Origin: an uncultured Planctomycetota bacterium
GTDB lineage: Bacteria > Planctomycetota > Phycisphaerae > Tepidisphaerales > Tepidisphaeraceae
Direction: 5' to 3'
Assembly: GCA_963841915.1 (NCBI GenBank)
Contig: CAWJEN010000006.1
Location: 1,568,001-1,632,000 of the forward strand
Length of the DNA stretch: 64,000 bases
The translations under genes and the position numbers were made by a program. The notes under the pieces were generated by a model. The model did no database searches, was not told the DNA's origin, and saw nothing but the letters and a program-made list of their open reading frames with translations. Shown piece after piece: positions 45,183-54,269 of this stretch; position 1 is the stretch's first letter, and the number at the start of each line of letters is the position of its first letter.

Positions 45183-46601
45183 ATGGACGCCCCGACTACT
45201 TCACCCGCCGGCCGACCCAATGTCCTGCTGATTCACAGCGATCAGCACCGCTTCGACTGCGTCGGCGTCAACCAGCCGCACACACCCGCCGGGCCGGGTA
45301 GGCTCGTCAAGACGCCCCACCTGGATCGTCTGGCCCAGCAGGGGACGAACTTCACGAGCGCTTACACGCCGATCCCGCTGTGCACGCCGGCCCGGGCGTC
45401 GCTGTCGACAGGTAGCTGGCCGAGTCGGCACAACAGCTGGGTCATTCCCAATACACTCGGCTACCGACCGGCCGACGGGTCGCTGCCGAACCTGTACCGG
45501 TTGTTGAGCGACGCCGGCTACTACGTGGCACATCTGGCCAAGTATCACCAGGAACTGGCCGGTACGCCGACGGATCACGGGGCTGACCGTTTTGAGCCGG
45601 AGACGGCGTACGACCCGTGGCGAGAGCAGCAGGGCTTGCCACCGCGGCCGATGACGAACGGGTTCTTCGGTGAGGTCGACGACATCGAGCCTGAGCAAGG
45701 CCGCATCGCCTGGGGTGCCGACCACACGATGGCTGCGCTGCGCGAGGCCAAGGCTGCGGGGCGGCCTGCGTTTGTGCGGTGGGATCCGAGCGAGCCGCAC
45801 CTGCCGAACGTGATTCCCGAGCCGTGGGCGTCGATGGTGGATCCGGGTGACGTGCCGCCTTGGGCGAGCTTTGCCGACACGCTCAAGAACAAGCCGATCA
45901 TGCAGCGAAAGACGCGGCAGCGGTGGGGCTGCGACGACTGGACGTGGGCTGACTGGCAGCCGATCGTGGCGCGGTATCTGGGTGAGGTGATGTTGCTCGA
46001 TCACCACGTCGGCCGCGTGCTGGCGACGCTGGACGAACTCGGCATGGCTGACGACACGCTCGTCATCTACAGCACCGATCACGGCGACTTCTGCGGCGGG
46101 CACGGCATGACGGACAAGCACTACACGGGCTACGACGACATTCTGCACGTGCCGCTCATCGCCCGCTGGCCCGGCCACCTGGAGGCGGGGGCAACGTGCG
46201 ACCGGTTCGTGATTCACGAGCTCGACCTCGCCAGGACGATCATCGATGCCGTTTTAGGCGAAGCGCCAGAGACCTTCGCCGGCCGCAATCTGATCGACGA
46301 AGCAGCCGGCACGTCGGCGGAGCGGGACGACGTTTTCGTGCAGTACTCCGGCACGCAGCAGGGCCGGTGCGACCAGCGGTACCTGCGGACGCGGCGGTGG
46401 AAGTACGTCTACTGCCCGACAAGCGAAGACGAGCTGTACGACCTTGACGCTGACCCGGGCGAGTTGGTGAACGTGATCGACGAGCCGCAGCACTCGGGGG
46501 CGTTGCTCGAGGTTCGCCAGCGGATGATGACGTGGCTGGCCGAGACGGGTGATCCGCTGACGGGGCCGCTGTGGACGTGGCCGGCGCGGATTCAGCCGTA
46601 G
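45183..46601 (+). CDS. Sulfatase (Cys-type, formylglycine-dependent)
   Basis: PNVLLIHSDQHR, CTPAR (CxPxR), STDHG, ELYDLDADPGE. Confidence 0.93.
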   Translation: MDAPTTSPAGRPNVLLIHSDQHRFDCVGVNQPHTPAGPGRLVKTPHLDRLAQQGTNFTSAYTPIPLCTPARASLSTGSWPSRHNSWVIPNTLGYRPADGSLPNLYRLLSDAGYYVAHLAKYHQELAGTPTDHGADRFEPETAYDPWREQQGLPPRPMTNGFFGEVDDIEPEQGRIAWGADHTMAALREAKAAGRPAFVRWDPSEPHLPNVIPEPWASMVDPGDVPPWASFADTLKNKPIMQRKTRQRWGCDDWTWADWQPIVARYLGEVMLLDHHVGRVLATLDELGMADDTLVIYSTDHGDFCGGHGMTDKHYTGYDDILHVPLIARWPGHLEAGATCDRFVIHELDLARTIIDAVLGEAPETFAGRNLIDEAAGTSAERDDVFVQYSGTQQGRCDQRYLRTRRWKYVYCPTSEDELYDLDADPGELVNVIDEPQHSGALLEVRQRMMTWLAETGDPLTGPLWTWPARIQP

Positions 46602-46663
46602 CGGGTAGTGGACGGTGGCGTCCGAACAGAGTCCTAACTAGCATGGTGGCAGCCGAGCCTGCC

Positions 46664-49600
46664 ATGCCAGACGAGTCGCAACCAAAGTCCAAGATACACC
46701 CGTTCAAGACGAAGCGTCATCACTGGACGCGGGCCAAGGAAGTCGCCGCGTCTGAGGCGAACAAGAAGACGCCCAAGTGGCAGCAGGGTTGGGGCGGCTT
46801 CAAGGACAAGAAGGGCCGGGCCAAAGAATTGCTCGAGATCTCGCCACCACCGGCGATCATCAAGGCCGGCAGCGTCGTCACGTTTGCCGAGCTGTGTTGC
46901 ACGAGCAACTTCACGTTTCTGACCGGGGCGAGTCACCCCGACGAGATCGCCCGTCGGGCGGCGGAGCTCGGCTACGACGCGTTCGGCGTGTGCGACACGA
47001 ACACGCTGGCCGGTGTAGTGCGGGCGCACGTCGAGGCCGAACGCCAGGAGATTCGCCAGGTCGTCGGTAGCCGCGTCGAGCTGTCGGACGGTCGTGGCAT
47101 TTATGTCTGGCCGACGAACCTCGCCGCGTACGGCAGGCTCGCCACACTGCTGACCGTCGGCAAGATGCGGGCCAGCAAGGGCGAGTGCTTGCTTGGCCTG
47201 TGGGACTTGCTGGAGTACGCCGAGGGTCAGATGCTCGGCATCGAGGTGCCGACCGTCATCGACAATGGTTTTGTCGCGATGCTCCGCACGCTGCAGGATT
47301 GGTGCGGCGGGACGAACGCGTTGTCGCTGCTGGCTGCGCGCGACTACGGGCCTGATGACGAACAACGGCTGCGCAACATCGCGCGATTGTCGGCAGAAGA
47401 GCACGTGCCGATGCTGGCGACGAATCGGCCGCTTTATCACGTGCGAGGCAGGCGGTTGATGCAGGACGTCGTCTCGTGCATCCGTCGTGGTTGCACGCTC
47501 GACGAAGCAGGCCTGGCCCTCGAAGCGTCGGCCGAGCGGCACATGAAGGTGCCCGAAGAGATGGACCGGCTGTTCTCGCGTTACCCGAACGCGATCGCCC
47601 GCACGATTGAGGTTGCGTCGCGTTGCCGCGAGTTTTCACTGAACCAGCTCAAGTATCAGTACCCCGACGAGGTTGTGCCCGACGGCTCGACGGCAATGGA
47701 GCACCTCGAACAGCTCTCGCGGGCCGGGCTGCAAGGGCGTTTCCCCGACGGCGTGCCGGAGAAGGTGCGCACGCAGTTCGAGCACGAGTTGGTGCTCATC
47801 GGGGAGTTGAAGTTGCCGCACTATTTCCTGACGGTCGAAGACCTTGTGCGGTGGAGTCGCCAGCAGGGCATCTTGTGTCAAGGCCGCGGCGCGGCGGCGA
47901 ACAGCGTCGTCTGCTACTCGCTGGGCGTGACCGACGCCGACCCGACGCGGATCAACACGCTCTTCGAACGGTTCATCAGCCGCGCCCGCAACGAGCCGCC
48001 GGACATCGATGTCGACTTCGAACACGAACGACGCGAAGAGGCGATTCAGTACCTTTACCGCAAGTACGGCCGTGACCGGGCGGCGATGACGGCCAACGTC
48101 ATCACCTACCGCGGCAGAAGCGCCGTCCGCGAGGTTGGCAAAGTCCTCGGCTTCGGCGCCGACACCATCGACCGCCTCGCCAAAGGTATCAACTGGTGGA
48201 AAGGCGGCCCGGTCGAAGAAGACGAACTCGCCGCCCAGAAGCTCGACCACGCCGACGTTGCTACCGGGCACCTCGTCTACCTCTCGCAGGCCATCCAGGG
48301 ATTTCCCCGACACCTCAGCCAACACCCTGGCGGCTTCGTGCTGACACAAACGCCGCTGCATCAGCTCGTGCCAATCGAGAACTGCGCGATGGAAGCCCGC
48401 ACCGCCATCGAGTGGGATAAAGACGACATCGACGCCCTTGGCTTCATCAAAGTCGACGTGCTGGGGCTTGGCATGCTGACGTGTATGGCCAAGGGGTTTG
48501 AGCTATTAAAAGGCACAAAGGCACAAAGGCACGAAGGCACGAAGGGCTTGACTTCGGACACTCATGAGCGAGATCAAGACATATCGAGATCTGGTGGCGT
48601 GGCAGAGAGCTATGCAGTTGTGTCAGGCGCTTTATTGACAGACGAAGGCAATGCCGGCCGAAGAGCGTTTTGGGCTGACGAATCAGATGAGGCGTGCGGC
48701 CGTATTGATTCCGTCGAACATCGCAGAAGGATTCGGCAGGCAGAGCCGCGCCGACCACTTGAAGTTCCTGAAGATCGCACGCGGATCGTTGATGGAGCTT
48801 CAGACGCAGTACGAACTGGCGTGGTCGATGGAGATGATCCCCCGGAACGAGGAGCTGCATACATTGCTGATCGAGAGCGACCGCATTCTGCAGGGTCTCA
48901 TTCGCAGCCTGATGCGTTAGCTCCGGCATCTGCCCCTTCGTGCCCTCGTGCCTTTGTGCCTTCGTGCCTAGCCGAGGTGCTTCAGCCGCCGGACGATCCT
49001 GTGGTCTTCGACATGATTTGTCGGGCCGACACGATGGGGACGTTTCAGATCGAAAGCCGGGCGCAGATGACGATGTTGCCGAGGTTGCGGCCGCGGTGCT
49101 TTTATGACCTGGTGGTCGAGGTTGCCATCGTGCGGCCCGGGCCGATTCAGGGTGGCATGGTCCACCCCTATCTCAAGCGGCGCAGCGGCGAAGAGCCGGT
49201 GCCGGACTTTTCTGACGGGCCGCTCGGGTGGATTCTGGCCAAGACGTTCGGCGTGCCGATTTTCCAGGAGCAGGCGATGCTGATGGCCGTCCACTGCGCG
49301 GGCTTTTCACCCGACGAGGCCGACGGCCTCAGGCGTGCGGTCACCGGCTTCCGCCGCTTCGGCGACATCGACGACTACGAGTCGAAGATTGTCGAGGGCA
49401 TGGTAGAGAACGGCTACGAGCGTGACTTTGCCGAGCGGTGCTTCAAGCAAATTCAGGGGTTTTCAACCTACGGATTTCCGGAGAGCCACGCTGCCAGCTT
49501 CGCGCTGATCGCGTACGCGAGCAACTACTTCAAGTGCCACTGGCCGGGCGTCTTTCTGGCGGCCATTCTCAACAGTCAGCCGATGGGCTTTTATAAACCG

Positions 49601-50416
49601 GCCCAACTCGTGCAGTGCGCCCAACGGCACGGCGTGACCGTGCTGCCGGTCGACGTGATGCACAGTGACTGGGATTGCACGCTGCCACCGACGCAGGATC
49701 ACATGACGGTCCGGCTCGGGATGAGATGCGTCAAAGGAATGAGGCAGGACGACGCCCAGCGCATCATCGCCGCACGCGGCAAGGGCGTTGTCAGCATCGA
49801 GCAACTTTGGCACCAAAGCCGCTGCTCGGCGAGGGCGATGAAGTGTCTGGCCAAAGCCGACGCCTTCGGCTCGCTCAACGGCGGCCTCGATCGACAGTCG
49901 GCGCTGTGGCACGTGGGTAAACTCCGTGACGACGACACGCCGTTGTTCGATCACGTGCACGAGCCCGAGCCCGTCGTCGCGCTGCCGACGCTCGCGCCGC
50001 TTCGGCATGTATTGGCCGATTACACGCACACAGGTCTGTCGCTCAAGGACCACCCGATGCGATTGCTTCGTGGCGAGCTGCCGGGCGTGACGGTGGCGGG
50101 TGACCTGGCCGACGAGGAGCGGTTTCCGTCCGGTCGGAACGTGACGGTGGCCGGCATCTGCCTCGTCCGCCAAAGGCCCGGCAGCGCCAAGAGCATCACG
50201 TTCCTCACGCTCGAGGACGAGACAGGCATGAGCAACCTGGTCGTTTACCCTAATATCTTCGACCGATGGAAGCGCATCGCCCGCGACAGCCGCACCATGC
50301 TCGTCCGCGGCCGCGTTGATCGGCAGGGCGAAGTCGTGCACGTCATCGCGACGACCTTCGAGTGCCTCGACGGCAAGCTCGACGCGTTGCGTGGCATGTC
50401 GCGAAACTTCCACTAG
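46664..50416 (+). CDS. dnaE2: Error-prone DNA polymerase DnaE2 with an in-frame ~153-aa insertion
   Basis: PHP domain SNFTFLTGASHP; PPDIDVDFEH; KVDVLGLGML; FQIESRAQM; C-terminal SRNFH signature. Start uncertain (46643 or 46664). Confidence 0.95.
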   Translation: MPDESQPKSKIHPFKTKRHHWTRAKEVAASEANKKTPKWQQGWGGFKDKKGRAKELLEISPPPAIIKAGSVVTFAELCCTSNFTFLTGASHPDEIARRAAELGYDAFGVCDTNTLAGVVRAHVEAERQEIRQVVGSRVELSDGRGIYVWPTNLAAYGRLATLLTVGKMRASKGECLLGLWDLLEYAEGQMLGIEVPTVIDNGFVAMLRTLQDWCGGTNALSLLAARDYGPDDEQRLRNIARLSAEEHVPMLATNRPLYHVRGRRLMQDVVSCIRRGCTLDEAGLALEASAERHMKVPEEMDRLFSRYPNAIARTIEVASRCREFSLNQLKYQYPDEVVPDGSTAMEHLEQLSRAGLQGRFPDGVPEKVRTQFEHELVLIGELKLPHYFLTVEDLVRWSRQQGILCQGRGAAANSVVCYSLGVTDADPTRINTLFERFISRARNEPPDIDVDFEHERREEAIQYLYRKYGRDRAAMTANVITYRGRSAVREVGKVLGFGADTIDRLAKGINWWKGGPVEEDELAAQKLDHADVATGHLVYLSQAIQGFPRHLSQHPGGFVLTQTPLHQLVPIENCAMEARTAIEWDKDDIDALGFIKVDVLGLGMLTCMAKGFELLKGTKAQRHEGTKGLTSDTHERDQDISRSGGVAESYAVVSGALLTDEGNAGRRAFWADESDEACGRIDSVEHRRRIRQAEPRRPLEVPEDRTRIVDGASDAVRTGVVDGDDPPERGAAYIADRERPHSAGSHSQPDALAPASAPSCPRAFVPSCLAEVLQPPDDPVVFDMICRADTMGTFQIESRAQMTMLPRLRPRCFYDLVVEVAIVRPGPIQGGMVHPYLKRRSGEEPVPDFSDGPLGWILAKTFGVPIFQEQAMLMAVHCAGFSPDEADGLRRAVTGFRRFGDIDDYESKIVEGMVENGYERDFAERCFKQIQGFSTYGFPESHAASFALIAYASNYFKCHWPGVFLAAILNSQPMGFYKPAQLVQCAQRHGVTVLPVDVMHSDWDCTLPPTQDHMTVRLGMRCVKGMRQDDAQRIIAARGKGVVSIEQLWHQSRCSARAMKCLAKADAFGSLNGGLDRQSALWHVGKLRDDDTPLFDHVHEPEPVVALPTLAPLRHVLADYTHTGLSLKDHPMRLLRGELPGVTVAGDLADEERFPSGRNVTVAGICLVRQRPGSAKSITFLTLEDETGMSNLVVYPNIFDRWKRIARDSRTMLVRGRVDRQGEVVHVIATTFECLDGKLDALRGMSRNFH
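48511..48969 (+). mobile_element. Intervening element bounded by inverted octamer-repeat arrays
   Basis: Left (AAGGCACR)4-AAGGGC at 48510-48547; right GCCCCTT-(YGTGCCYT)~4 at 48932-48969; encloses a four-helix-bundle gene. Confidence 0.8.
48564..48920 (+). pseudogene. Four-helix-bundle protein (23S rRNA IVS protein/Avd-like family), nested in +1 frame of dnaE2, internal TGA
   Basis: MSEIKTYRDLVAWQRAMQLCQALY*QTKAMPAEERFGLTNQMRRAAVLIPSNIAEGFGR...FLKIARGSLMELQTQ; TGA at 48636-48638. Confidence 0.9.
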
Positions 50417-50472: not shown

Positions 50473-52284
50473 ATGCGGGACTCGGGGAAGATCAAGGTCT
50501 ACACGACGATGGCCGCAACGGTGTGCGCGTTGACCGCGCTGCCGCTCGGCGTGCTGGGCTACGTCGCGGCCGGTGAGTCGTTGCTCAACGGCTTCTACAT
50601 GACGCTGCAGTTCTTCGCCCTGGGCGATCCTTACCCGGACGCGGCCAAGAACTTCATGCTCCACGTCGCCCGCCTGCTGGCCGCGGCGGCGGTGTCGCTG
50701 GCGGTGGTCATGACGGTGATGTCGCTTTGTGCCGACGTCTCACGACGATACTTTGCCCAAAGCTGGCGCAACCACGACATCGTCTGCGGCCTTGGAAATC
50801 GGGGCATCAACCTTGTGCACCAACTCGCCGCGACGCATCAGTGCGAGAGTGTCAAGGACCGCATCAAGGCCGCGATGTGGGGCGACCGCGCCATCGTCGC
50901 CATCGAACGCAACGAGCAGAACCCGCACCTCCAGACGGCGAGGCGGGCGGGCGCATTGGTCATCGTCGGCGATGCGACCAACCCCAATGTGCTCCACGAC
51001 GCGGCCGTGCGATCCGCGGCTCGGCTGTTCTCGTGTTGCGGCAAGGACGACGACACCGACGTCGCCGTCACCCTGGCGGCGGTGGACGAGGCGGCGAAGT
51101 CGACGCGTACCAAGCAGCTTCACATCTGCCCGGAGATCAACGATCCGACCATCCGCACGCTCATTCGGCAGTACGCCGCCCGGCAGAAACACGAAGGGCG
51201 TTCGGTGCTCGTGCACCCTTTCGACAACAACGAGCTCTCTGCTCGACGCCTGCTCGCCGACTACCCGCTCGACCATGATCGACAGCTCGGCCTTACATCG
51301 TTCAAGCACGCCCAGCTCGTCATCATCGGATTCGGCCCGCTCGGTCAGGCGGTGCTGTTGCAGGCGATGCACGTGGGGCACTTTGCCAATCGCAGTGTGT
51401 TGCGCGTCACGCTGATCGATCCGGACATTGACACACTGTATCGCCGATTTGTGGCGGCCCATCCGAACCTCGGCCGCAGAGGGTTGCAACGGCCCGCACG
51501 CATCCGCCGCCGTGGCATGCACCCGCTGGACCCGCGGCTGTGCATGTTTCTCAACGACATCGCCGACAATCCCGAAGCAGTCGTAACCGTTGTCGTGTGC
51601 CTCGGCGTCGCAACAGAGGCGGTCCGACTGGTCGACCAGACTCGTCGTGCCACTGCGGCGGACAACGTCAGGTTGCTCGTCCGCGTTCCGAACAATCGTG
51701 GGTTCGGCCGCTTGCTTCACCCCGAAAGCGAGGCGAATCGTGAGGTGGACGGCGTCGCCTTTCCAAACGTGTACGACTTCAGCCCGGCCACTGACATCGA
51801 TCCCGCGGCCATTCGCGACGAGCATCATGACAAGCTGGCCCAGGCGATTCACCACGCATATCGCACCAGGACCACATTCGGCGAGAACCTACCCGATGCA
51901 AAGCCGCAGCAGCGGCCTTGGAACGAGCTCGACGAGATCTTTCGCATTTCCAATCGGGCGGCGGCTGACTTTGTGCCGTTACTCTGGCGGACGTTCGGCT
52001 TTGAGATCATCGCCGCAAAGTCTGCGGATCAAAGAAATCGGGTGAAGGAGGTGCCGTCGCACTTGCACGAGGTCATGGCCCAGCTCGAACACGAGCGCTG
52101 GTGCAGCGAGCGGTTCTTGTCCGGCTGGCAGCGCGACGCGGTTCGCGACGACTCGCGTCGGCGGCATCCGGATCTGGTCCCGTGGGCCACGCTCGACGCA
52201 GCGTCGAAGCAGCACAATCGGGACCAAGTCAGCTCGCACGTCACCATTCTCAGCCAGATCGGCTATGTCGTCCTCCCAGCCTGA
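50473..52284 (+). CDS. Membrane protein with 2TM/pore-like segment, two TrkA-N/RCK domains and C-terminal RyR domains
   Basis: TM-YMTLQFFALG-TM; HDIVCGLGNRG...VGDAT; LVIIGFGPLG; LAQAIHHAY...WNELDE...SNR; MAQLEHERW...GW...HPDLVPWATL. Confidence 0.85.
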   Translation: MRDSGKIKVYTTMAATVCALTALPLGVLGYVAAGESLLNGFYMTLQFFALGDPYPDAAKNFMLHVARLLAAAAVSLAVVMTVMSLCADVSRRYFAQSWRNHDIVCGLGNRGINLVHQLAATHQCESVKDRIKAAMWGDRAIVAIERNEQNPHLQTARRAGALVIVGDATNPNVLHDAAVRSAARLFSCCGKDDDTDVAVTLAAVDEAAKSTRTKQLHICPEINDPTIRTLIRQYAARQKHEGRSVLVHPFDNNELSARRLLADYPLDHDRQLGLTSFKHAQLVIIGFGPLGQAVLLQAMHVGHFANRSVLRVTLIDPDIDTLYRRFVAAHPNLGRRGLQRPARIRRRGMHPLDPRLCMFLNDIADNPEAVVTVVVCLGVATEAVRLVDQTRRATAADNVRLLVRVPNNRGFGRLLHPESEANREVDGVAFPNVYDFSPATDIDPAAIRDEHHDKLAQAIHHAYRTRTTFGENLPDAKPQQRPWNELDEIFRISNRAAADFVPLLWRTFGFEIIAAKSADQRNRVKEVPSHLHEVMAQLEHERWCSERFLSGWQRDAVRDDSRRRHPDLVPWATLDAASKQHNRDQVSSHVTILSQIGYVVLPA

Positions 52285-52296
52285 TCGGAGACTTCC

Positions 52297-53190
52297 TTGA
52301 GCACAGCGATAGACGAAGTGGCTCGACAAGCCGCCTCCGAAGAAGCCAGGCAGGCCCTCATCAACGGGCAGCCGTACGAGGCGTTGTCGGCAATCTGCCG
52401 GGCCATCCGGCTGACGCCGCGAACGGCCCAAGGCGACGACGTCCTAGCAAGCAAAGTTGCGGCATTGAAACATTTCGCCGAGATACACCCGCAGACGCAA
52501 GGGACCATCTGGTGTCAGTGGGTCTTGACACTCGCCATTGCCGTACGCCGACTCAGCGACGGGGCGACGGACGTACCCGCCGACGTGAAGGTGCTCGCCG
52601 GCAAGCGTGTGACCGGCCCGATCATGTTTGTGGCTGGCGGTTGCGAGGATGCGCATTCTGTTGAGTGGGCACGCCTCGTCGATCTGCTCGATGGTGCGCT
52701 AGGCGACGTTGAACGCACGCTTGTGTCCGGCGGCACGAGGTCGGGCGTGAGCCAACTTGTAGGCGATCTAATCGAGCGACGCCCGCACTGCCGCCGTGGC
52801 ATGTGCTGGCTGCCGGACGAGATGCCTTCGGACGTGAGTATCGATGAGCGGTACGAGGACCGCCGGGTCAGCGAGGTCGGTGACGGTGCGTCGGGCTTTA
52901 CACCTGCCGAGCCGCTGCGATCTTGGATGACGGTGCTCGCCTCGGGAATTGCGCCGGCCGATGTGGTGCTGCTCGGCATCAACGGTGGTCGCATCTCTGG
53001 CTTCGAATACGAGCTGGCTGCCACGCTTGGCGCTCGCGTCGGACTGCTGCATCCGACGGGTCGCGCGGTGGACGCGCTGCACGCGCAGCGTCATCGCCTT
53101 GAGCAGCCGAGTGTGGAGTTTCTTCCGCTCGAACAGGCTCGAATCGCCGCCTTCGTCTCGCGTGATCAATTCGGAGTCGAGGCATCGTGA
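52297..53190 (+). CDS. SLOG-superfamily nucleotide-binding domain protein with helical N-terminus
   Basis: FVAGG, LVSGGTRSGV, GINGGRISGFE (cf. LOG GGxGTxxE); TTG start after GGAG. Confidence 0.7.
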   Translation: MSTAIDEVARQAASEEARQALINGQPYEALSAICRAIRLTPRTAQGDDVLASKVAALKHFAEIHPQTQGTIWCQWVLTLAIAVRRLSDGATDVPADVKVLAGKRVTGPIMFVAGGCEDAHSVEWARLVDLLDGALGDVERTLVSGGTRSGVSQLVGDLIERRPHCRRGMCWLPDEMPSDVSIDERYEDRRVSEVGDGASGFTPAEPLRSWMTVLASGIAPADVVLLGINGGRISGFEYELAATLGARVGLLHPTGRAVDALHAQRHRLEQPSVEFLPLEQARIAAFVSRDQFGVEAS

Positions 53191-54269
53191 AGCGCATCAT
53201 CAGCATCGACGGCGGTGGCATTCGCGGCGTCTTTTCGCTGCAGATTCTGAAGCGCATCGAGCTGCTTTATCGAGAGCGACACGCCAAAGCCGATCTCGTG
53301 TTGGCGGACGTCATCGACTTCTTCGCCGGGACCAGCACCGGCGCGATTGTCGCGACATGTTTGAGTTGGGGCATGTCAGTCGACGAGGTCGAGCGGCTGT
53401 ATGTTGAAGAGGGCGGGCGCATGTTTTCAAGAGCCGGCGTGCTGGAGCGGTGGTGGTCAAAGTACCGGCCGCACGCGTTGGCGGACATGTTTCGTGAGCT
53501 GTTCCTGGAAGATGACGGTGCACCCGCTGATCTTGGCAGCGGCAAGCTGCGGACGCGACTGCTCGTCGTGATGCGAAACGCGACGACCGGTTCGCCCTGG
53601 CCGATCACGAACAATCCGGAGGCGTTGTTCAACGACGAGTCGCTGGCCGACTGCAACTTGCGGATCCCAATCTGGCAGTTGCTTCGGGGCAGCACTGCGG
53701 CACCGACTTACTTCGAACCCGAGCGCATCGTGCTCGGCAGTCAATGCTTCCTCTTCGTCGACGGCGGCGTGACGCCTTACAACAACCCGGCGATGCTGGC
53801 AGTCCTGAAGGCGACGCTGCCTTGCTACCGGATGAACTGGCCGACCGGCGTCGACAAGCTGCACGTGACCTCCGTCGGCACCGGGAGCTTTCGCAGCGTG
53901 CTCGGGAAAACCCGCGCCAGCCGCCTGCGACGCATCGGCCTTTTGGACCAGCTCAAAGTTCTTCCCAACGCGTTGCTCGGATCGGTCTCTGACCAGCAGG
54001 ACCTGATGTGCCGCGTCATGGGTAACTGCATCCACGGGCACCCGATTGACAGTGAGATCGGCGACCAAATCGAGCGAAGCGACGACGCGCCAACACGCAA
54101 GCAATTCACGTACGTCCGCTACAACCGGCGTCTTGATGTTGTAGACGCGACAACGACGCTGCCGCCGTTGCTCGACGCGACGCTCGATAACCTGGCCCTC
54201 ATTCCGCGGCTGATGGAACTCGGCCACGCGTACGCAGAAGCGTCGGTCGAGGAACGGCATCTGCTGTGA
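53187..54269 (+). CDS. Patatin-like phospholipase
   Basis: IISIDGGGIRG, GTSTG, AAPTYF, VDGG; GTGA overlap with upstream gene. Confidence 0.93.
   Translation: MKRIISIDGGGIRGVFSLQILKRIELLYRERHAKADLVLADVIDFFAGTSTGAIVATCLSWGMSVDEVERLYVEEGGRMFSRAGVLERWWSKYRPHALADMFRELFLEDDGAPADLGSGKLRTRLLVVMRNATTGSPWPITNNPEALFNDESLADCNLRIPIWQLLRGSTAAPTYFEPERIVLGSQCFLFVDGGVTPYNNPAMLAVLKATLPCYRMNWPTGVDKLHVTSVGTGSFRSVLGKTRASRLRRIGLLDQLKVLPNALLGSVSDQQDLMCRVMGNCIHGHPIDSEIGDQIERSDDAPTRKQFTYVRYNRRLDVVDATTTLPPLLDATLDNLALIPRLMELGHAYAEASVEERHLL

Follow-up and report, generated by a model that had tools for sequence, protein, structure and literature searches.

A channel, SLOG protein and patatin operon of a planctomycete is a unique, reduced arrangement of a wider Thoeris-like family

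A 64,000-nucleotide stretch of DNA from an uncultured bacterium of the Tepidisphaeraceae (Planctomycetota), here called the window and numbered from its first letter, contains three coupled genes, G1, G2 and G3, which encode a channel-like protein with ryanodine receptor (RyR) domains, a SLOG protein and a patatin. We find that this operon is a unique, reduced arrangement of a wider Thoeris-like family which, together with its RelA/SpoT-TPR-SLOG-RyR proteins, is apparently undescribed. G1 and G2 are a recurring pair, G3 is drawn from the gene pool that they share, and the complete trio was seen only here. At a probability of about one half, we propose that the trio was acquired horizontally and is what remains, on the receiving side only, of a Thoeris-like network linked to TIR and nucleotide-binding leucine-rich repeat (NLR) proteins.

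Layout of the operon

The original prediction for this DNA described three co-oriented genes lying between dnaE2 and a sugar locus, joined by a 12-nt gap with a ribosome-binding site and by a GTGA overlap, and the coordinates confirm this arrangement. All three reading frames are open and share one orientation, the gap between G1 and G2 contains GGAG, and the G2/G3 overlap is the GTGA at 53187-53190. Features are given with lengths and positions in amino acids (aa) where these refer to protein; TM denotes a transmembrane helix.

G1, 50473-52284, + strand: 603 aa, 2TM/pore-RCK-RCK-RyR (Repeat12 pair) channel-like protein
G1 TM1-pore helix-TM2, 50485-50763, + strand: aa 5-97
G1 tandem RCK domains, 50770-51792, + strand: aa ~100-260 and ~279-440
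G1 RyR repeat pair, 51820-52281, + strand: aa ~450-603
Ribosome-binding site GGAG, 52287-52290, + strand: 6 nt before the TTG of G2
G2, 52297-53190, + strand: TTG start, 297 aa, TPR hairpins at aa ~2-87 and LSDAT/TRPM-type SLOG at aa ~105-290
G3, 53187-54269, + strand: GTG start, 360 aa, patatin with S50/D192 dyad motifs intact

Upstream, dnaE2 ends 56 nt before G1, and downstream a convergent glucoamylase-family gene lies 6 nt past G3. GC content is flat throughout the region, codon adaptation of G1 and G3 is host-like (51st and 44th percentiles), and no convincing boundary repeats were found around the operon. As had been noted, neither TIR-like nor CD-NTase-type genes were seen in the window, either among the flanking open reading frames or by profile searches.

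G1 is a channel-like protein ending in RyR repeats

Pfam identifies TrkA_N (E 3.5e-11) and RyR (E 5.5e-15) domains in G1, and both GxGxxG motifs, at aa 106 and 286, are intact. A single-chain structure model built on a 37-row alignment (predicted local distance difference test score, pLDDT, 85.7) places helices at 5-32, 37-50 and 61-97 as the predicted TM1, pore helix and TM2, followed by two Rossmann domains and a helical tail. For this model Foldseek ranked GsuK first, then TrkA, RyR Repeat12 and CASTOR, and VIA-align returned KtrA at Z 19.6, GsuK at Z 18.3 and the DMI1/CASTOR rings at Z 16.5-17.4, with Repeat12 of RyR3 among the best fold matches. Pfam, model and Foldseek agree with the predicted 2TM/pore segment, paired GxGxxG RCK domains and RyR domains, and the single-chain model shows the TM1-pore helix-TM2 plus RCK gating domain arrangement that marks the MthK/GsuK class. 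Like GsuK, MthK, BK and CASTOR-DMI1, G1 combines a 2TM pore with two RCK domains per chain (Z 16-18). Unlike them, it lacks TVGYG, carries an extra C-terminal RyR pair and is sporadically distributed: full-length channel-RyR matches occur in only ~9 of 370 genomes of the class, plus the source genome.

The filter position of G1 reads ALGDP, and the family consensus there is LQLFxLxSGxV. Neither GYG nor GFG occurs within the first 100 aa of G1, and because no TVGYG filter was found in G1 or in 30 aligned relatives, its sequence makes a K+-selective pore unlikely.

The second RyR repeat presents H540, W543, R558, H565, H581 and N582 at the spacings of the pocket residues of phage RyR proteins, a mapping that uses residue spacing taken from those proteins and not an alignment to them. 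In two preprints of 2026, the pocket of RyDEP, a phage RyR domain, comprises H75, W78, H100 and D117 (10.64898/2026.05.28.727677) and that of the phage protein RyR Tad comprises H129, W132, K147, H154, K170 and D171 (10.64898/2026.06.04.730250). These phage domains are described there as binding or cleaving TIR-made 2'/3' cyclic ADP-ribose (cADPR) via an H/W/+25H/+42D set (10.64898/2026.05.28.727677; 10.64898/2026.06.04.730250), and Repeat12 of RyR as ATP-binding (10.64898/2026.06.04.730250). Among the 30 aligned G1 relatives H540 is invariant, 26 have W543 and 25 have an Asp at position 582; RyR1, like G1, has Asn at the position opposite N582. G1 therefore shares with RyDEP and RyR Tad the PF02026 domain and the H/W/R(K)/H residues at equal spacing, but it is host-encoded, fused to a channel and has Asn for the catalytic or binding Asp. 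By sequence, the pocket appears mostly intact but without the His/Asp glycosidase dyad of RyDEP, since N582 replaces the Asp (H540 being present).

G2 is most simply a truncated member of a larger protein family

The only Pfam match to G2 is LSDAT_prok at E 0.0039, below the cut-off, although many relatives score above it. The G2 model (pLDDT 90.6) predicts a SLOG Rossmannoid fold with glycine-rich loops that matches TM1055 (Z 17.4), the ADP-ribose (ADPR)-binding MHR1/2 of TRPM2 (Z 15.6), LOG-type proteins (Z 13-14) and ThsA (Z 11), and by its scores the helical part corresponds to the final TPR hairpins of relatives. The helical domain and SLOG-like fold originally proposed are thus upheld; a sequence-profile search of the PDB listed no SLOG structures.

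A word-indexed homologue search with G2 returned only itself, and full HMMER returned 786 representatives at E <= 0.001. Our family counts cover the 149 of these listed besides G2, scored with our own hidden Markov models (HMMs), with Pfam run on 63 of the 149. An N-terminal RelA/SpoT domain is present in 97 and a C-terminal RyR pair in 107; in 8 a Nudix domain precedes the rest, and a few proteins are fused to a cyclase or TIR-STAND. The typical relative listed is ~830 aa long and reads RelA/SpoT-TPR-SLOG-RyR, and the RelA/SpoT domain of the family consensus looks intact, retaining what we take to be synthetase motifs. In P0053, P0121, P0147, P0149, P0154 and P0107 the TPR-SLOG module is joined to adenylate-cyclase-AAA or TIR-NACHT proteins.

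G2 corresponds only to aa ~410-690 of the ~830-aa proteins and lacks both the alarmone-synthetase domain at their N-terminus and the RyR pair at their C-terminus. A tree was built from 97 SLOG domains (the top 50 hits, all hits without RelA/SpoT, and 12 loci); its bootstrap had not settled. It groups G2 with four others, two of them full-length proteins and two SLOG-RyR pieces, in a clade of five rows (100/97), separate from the other stand-alone forms. Because its SLOG nests in the RelA/SpoT-TPR-SLOG-RyR family while matching this segment only, and because its clade lies apart from other stand-alone SLOG forms, G2 is most simply taken as an independent truncation of such a protein. The letters of the window alone, from which the original prediction was made, could reveal neither this origin nor that the usual genes of the signal side, TIR/DUF4062, RelA/SpoT and Nudix, are missing here.

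A PADLOC run had been suggested as a check of novelty, and neither PADLOC nor NCBIfam has a model above noise for G1 or G2 (PADLOC gave one weak off-target match). The 18 relatives run through PADLOC matched single shared domains only. ESM Atlas matches, all under 0.9, were LSDAT clusters and one RyR+LSDAT cluster, and we treat them only as a lead.

The channel and the SLOG protein recur together

We compared loci anchored on each of the three genes. The SLOG-anchored sample comprised 30 genome loci, 80 metagenome loci (the best 80 of 245), together with 20 stretches of DNA from the phylum; 119 fetched stretches had a SLOG hit, and 106 were non-redundant. TIR-like genes were called with a profile built in this analysis and seeded on Pfam-confirmed stretches. 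Across the 106 loci the SLOG is fused to RelA/SpoT in 84 and to RyR in 83, with Nudix in 54 and a TIR/DUF4062-like gene in 45. A G1-type gene is present in 32 (20 full-length and 12 partial, 30 on the same strand), a patatin in 1, and a channel together with a patatin in 0. Where the flanks reach 4 kb or more on each side (34 non-redundant loci), we find RelA/SpoT fused in 33, RyR fused in 31, Nudix in 25, a TIR/DUF4062-like gene in 22, a G1-type gene in 14 and a patatin in 1. The usual company of the RelA/SpoT-TPR-SLOG-RyR protein is thus a Nudix gene, a channel and TIR/DUF4062 NLR-like genes, in records named as Planctomycetota, Actinomycetes, Gemmatimonadota, Chloroflexota-type and Bathyarchaeia. 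Complete loci of the wider family include L035, L067, L072, L079 and L108. Stand-alone TPR-SLOG genes recur as well (L061, L106, L134 and L135): L061 holds a channel and stand-alone TPR-SLOG pair as here, without a patatin, and L106 holds AAA-RyR, TPR-SLOG and DUF4062-WD40.

The 18 channel-anchored loci, which include two near-duplicate pairs, contain a RelA/SpoT-SLOG protein in 1, a SIR2-like protein in 2 and a patatin in 0. At L202:339-6256, and likewise in L203, a RyR-RCK channel is convergent with a 1,413-aa SIR2-like protein. At L206:8266-10758 a single protein has an N-terminal TIR and a C-terminal RyR pair by our own HMMs, a fusion joining both domains.

The trio of channel, SLOG and patatin was found elsewhere in 0 of the 106 SLOG-anchored, 0 of the 18 channel-anchored and 0 of the 15 patatin-anchored loci. 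On these counts G1-G2 is a recurring pair and G3 a gene from the same pool. The co-occurrence across phyla that had been put forward as a check is therefore seen for relatives of G1 and G2 but not for the trio, and a conserved three-gene system is not supported.

These neighbourhoods bear on two other explanations. G1 might be a domesticated nucleotide-gated channel for ion or redox homeostasis, its RCK domains responding to NAD+/ADP as in GsuK and its RyR pair to ATP/ADPR, with G2 and G3 as passengers or lipid-turnover genes. GsuK is indeed the best full-length fold, both GxGxxG motifs are intact, Repeat12 binds ATP in RyR, and the two closest relatives of G1 (same family, 29% identity) sit by themselves amid housekeeping genes. 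We nevertheless find this reading quite improbable: the full-length architecture is rare in the class, the K+ filter is missing, and relatives are repeatedly linked with genes for RelA/SpoT-SLOG, TIR, SIR2-like and restriction proteins. Alternatively, along the lines of the original prediction, the operon could be self-contained; the G2 SLOG would then be an N-glycosidase that, once its TPR part senses an infection, produces a signal from NAD+ or AMP, with G1 and G3 as effectors. This too is quite improbable: of the TPR hairpins G2 holds only the terminal ones, no second trio was found, and most relatives have their SLOG fused to an intact-looking RelA/SpoT domain and near TIR genes, a setting that suits a receptor.

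G3 comes from a TIR-linked patatin pool

G3 matches Patatin in Pfam (E 1.9e-21) and has the full phospholipase motif set, GGGIRG at 9, GTSTG at 48 and DGG at 192, so the patatin with intact GGGxRG, GxSxG and DGG motifs had been correctly read. CapV, the patatin of the cyclic oligonucleotide-based antiphage signalling system (CBASS), had been named as a comparison. PADLOC CBASS phospholipase models match G3 at E 4.7e-38, and G3 shares the patatin fold and catalytic motifs of CapV, but it scores 110.9 bits against NCBIfam CBASS_lipase, below the 200-bit cut-off, and its relatives adjoin TIR/TPR-S genes. SMODS, the only CD-NTase-related model searched, has 0 matches in the genome (93.8% complete), and there is no CD-NTase among the flanking open reading frames. 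The locus is not CBASS.

Relatives of G3 number in the thousands, the best at ~60%. The 15 patatin-anchored loci contain TIR_2 in 8, TPR-S in 5, SLATT in 3 and a weak YpsA-type SLOG in 2; at least one of these occurs in 12 and none in 3. The channel is present in 0 and a RelA/SpoT-SLOG protein in 1. Two genomes, at L182:1989-13861 and L209:7065-12987, have an operon of TIR-nSTAND1, patatin and a SLATT-bearing (YpsA-like SLOG) gene, a candidate TIR-patatin-SLATT system; in L182 there are two patatins in tandem, together with a TIR-TPR and an HsdM gene.

Comparison with known systems

A survey of Thoeris counts 29 predicted types, some with channel or phospholipase effectors; the Thoeris types nearest to this operon are type I with a SIR2-SLOG ThsA, type III with a SLOG effector and type X with a TIR and an ion channel (10.64898/2025.12.03.692087). 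The present operon resembles these in its SLOG receptor fold and in that relatives of all three genes adjoin TIR genes. It differs in that no TIR, and so no ThsB, lies in the operon, and in that G2 is TRPM/LSDAT-like, with ThsA a more distant match. The main text of the survey has 0 mentions of RyR and RCK, although its Figure 1 and supplements might list such architectures (10.64898/2025.12.03.692087). The partners of TPR/TIR NAD+-signal assemblies include patatin and LSDAT (10.1101/2023.05.26.542521, citing Burroughs and Aravind 2020). G3 relatives often adjoin TPR-S genes in the same way, but there is no TPR-S core gene here and the available text of that source does not mention an RyR channel. 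SLOGs are treated as sensors or enzymes of ADPr derivatives in PMC9503650. Like TRPM2, whose MHR1/2 G2 closely resembles, the parent bacterial loci combine SLOG, Nudix and channel; unlike in TRPM2, these are separate proteins here, the pore is unrelated and the locus has no Nudix.

The literature searched does not describe host RyR-RCK channels or RelA/SpoT-SLOG-RyR proteins, which Burroughs et al. (2015) and Burroughs and Aravind (2020) might list. Nor did it yield host proteins with RyR Repeat12 as a signal receptor, the accessible text of the 2026 preprints covering the phage side only.

Host genome and site of the operon

The genes and their relatives are patchily distributed. No match to G1, G2 or G3 was found in four congeners (80-98% complete), although dnaE2 is present there at 74-78% DNA identity, and G3 had 0 matches in 57 same-family genomes at E <= 1e-45. 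The DNA after dnaE2 differs in each of the four congeners. In this genome dnaE2 (46571-50416) is separated from the DNA that precedes it in all four, which matches C5:268-270 kb on another contig. Since dnaE2 no longer adjoins its usual upstream DNA, we regard the operon site as a rearrangement junction.

The 3.63-Mb genome has one RyR gene and one TIR_2 match. The sole TIR_2 protein (289 aa with a hydrophobic segment; C5:566142-567011, or L193:11143-12012) is encoded on a contig other than that of the operon, and its N-terminus is similar to TIRs beside RyR/SLOG loci. Used as query, it was not found in the four congeners, and ThsB_TIR had no match in the source genome. A Nudix gene 3 kb from this TIR was considered as a system part and rejected, because a congener has a match beside the same downstream gene.

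Proposed mechanism

From the observed domains, folds, neighbourhoods of relatives and patchy distribution we infer a ligand, a mode of gating, a role of G2 towards G3 and an antiphage effect as follows. An NAD+-derived signal of the cADPR or glycocyclic ADPR (gcADPR) type, made by an unlinked TIR, would bind the RyR Repeat12 pocket of G1 and shift the RCK gating ring so that a non-K+-selective pore opens. G2, cut from its RelA/SpoT-TPR-SLOG-RyR ancestor, may bind or turn over the same signal class through its TRPM2-like SLOG, and G3 would be an interchangeable membrane-lipid effector drawn from the gene pool that they share. Depolarisation of the cell and damage to its membrane would follow, amounting to abortive infection. 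As there is no synthase in the locus, the signal must come in trans, and the one TIR protein of the genome is the obvious candidate source. In favour of this proposal count the neighbourhoods of G2 and G3 relatives, the pocket residues of G1, the TRPM2-like fold of G2, the pair at L061 and the lack of matches in the congeners.

Several observations weigh against such a remnant of a TIR-linked network. Relatives of each gene do lie in the nucleotide-signal conflict context that had been predicted, but the flanks here, dnaE2 and sugar genes, are no defence island. TIR, DUF4062, RelA/SpoT and SMODS genes were not found in the locus, and the last three have no match in the 93.8% complete genome. 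A TIR-like gene occurs in only 4 of the 18 channel-anchored loci, the closest G1 relatives stand alone, the trio has no second example, and the best-scoring patatin relative (L208) is without TIR_2, TPR-S, SLATT or YpsA-type SLOG neighbours within 12 kb. G1 has N582 where the phage proteins and most relatives have Asp. G2 has lower codon adaptation (14th percentile) and keeps 33 of the 44 SLOG columns conserved at >=80%, a level as low in only 2 of 147 relatives.

That G2 is more eroded than nearly all its relatives makes decay a real rival, if an unlikely one: the operon could be a chance assembly, the remains of a larger island that lost its sensor, synthetase and Nudix genes at the rearrangement junction, with genes that no longer cooperate and G2 drifting. 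G2 has lost a 97%-conserved Gly as well as the synthetase and RyR parts of the full-length relatives with which it nests (100/97), dnaE2 has parted from the upstream DNA of its congeners, the DNA that follows varies among them, and the trio is unique among the loci sampled. Against decay stand the three open frames with their ribosome-binding site and GTGA coupling, the host-like codon use of G1 and G3, and the recurrence of stand-alone TPR-SLOG genes. The G2 fold is confidently modelled, glycine loops, E237 and R256 are retained, and 4 of the 11 deviating columns deviate in the nearest relatives too.

A bolder version of the receiver-only proposal, which we hold to be unlikely, is that the operon is a working, sensor-independent effector cassette, in which a RyR-Repeat12-gated non-selective RCK channel and a TRPM2-type SLOG licensing the patatin would hear any TIR-made cADPR-type signal in trans. 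If so, the cassette would mirror in bacteria the gating of ryanodine receptors by cADPR and of TRPM2 by ADPR, and would offer a small system in which to test whether Repeat12 is the long-sought cADPR site. A bacterial channel gated by RyR would open the old question of cADPR action on ryanodine receptors to direct test, and Thoeris-like immunity would gain a channel class. With its synthase missing and its SLOG gene eroded, the present locus is a weak specimen for RyR gating, and the complete loci are better ones. What it does display is modularity of parts: the SLOG is separable, and the arrangement can take up a patatin from the same TIR-linked pool.

Other observations around dnaE2

In one congener the slot after dnaE2 (L165:3604-8308) holds a KAP NTPase, an unknown gene, a QueC-like gene and TatD, a layout like that of QatABCD. 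Within dnaE2 of the window, at ~48510-49005, lies a ~500-bp in-frame insertion that is absent from dnaE2 of the four congeners and bounded by 36-bp inverted repeats. Within the insertion, in a different frame of the same strand, lies a four-helix-bundle gene (23S_rRNA_IVP, E 1.1e-24) that is interrupted by a single internal stop close to its start.

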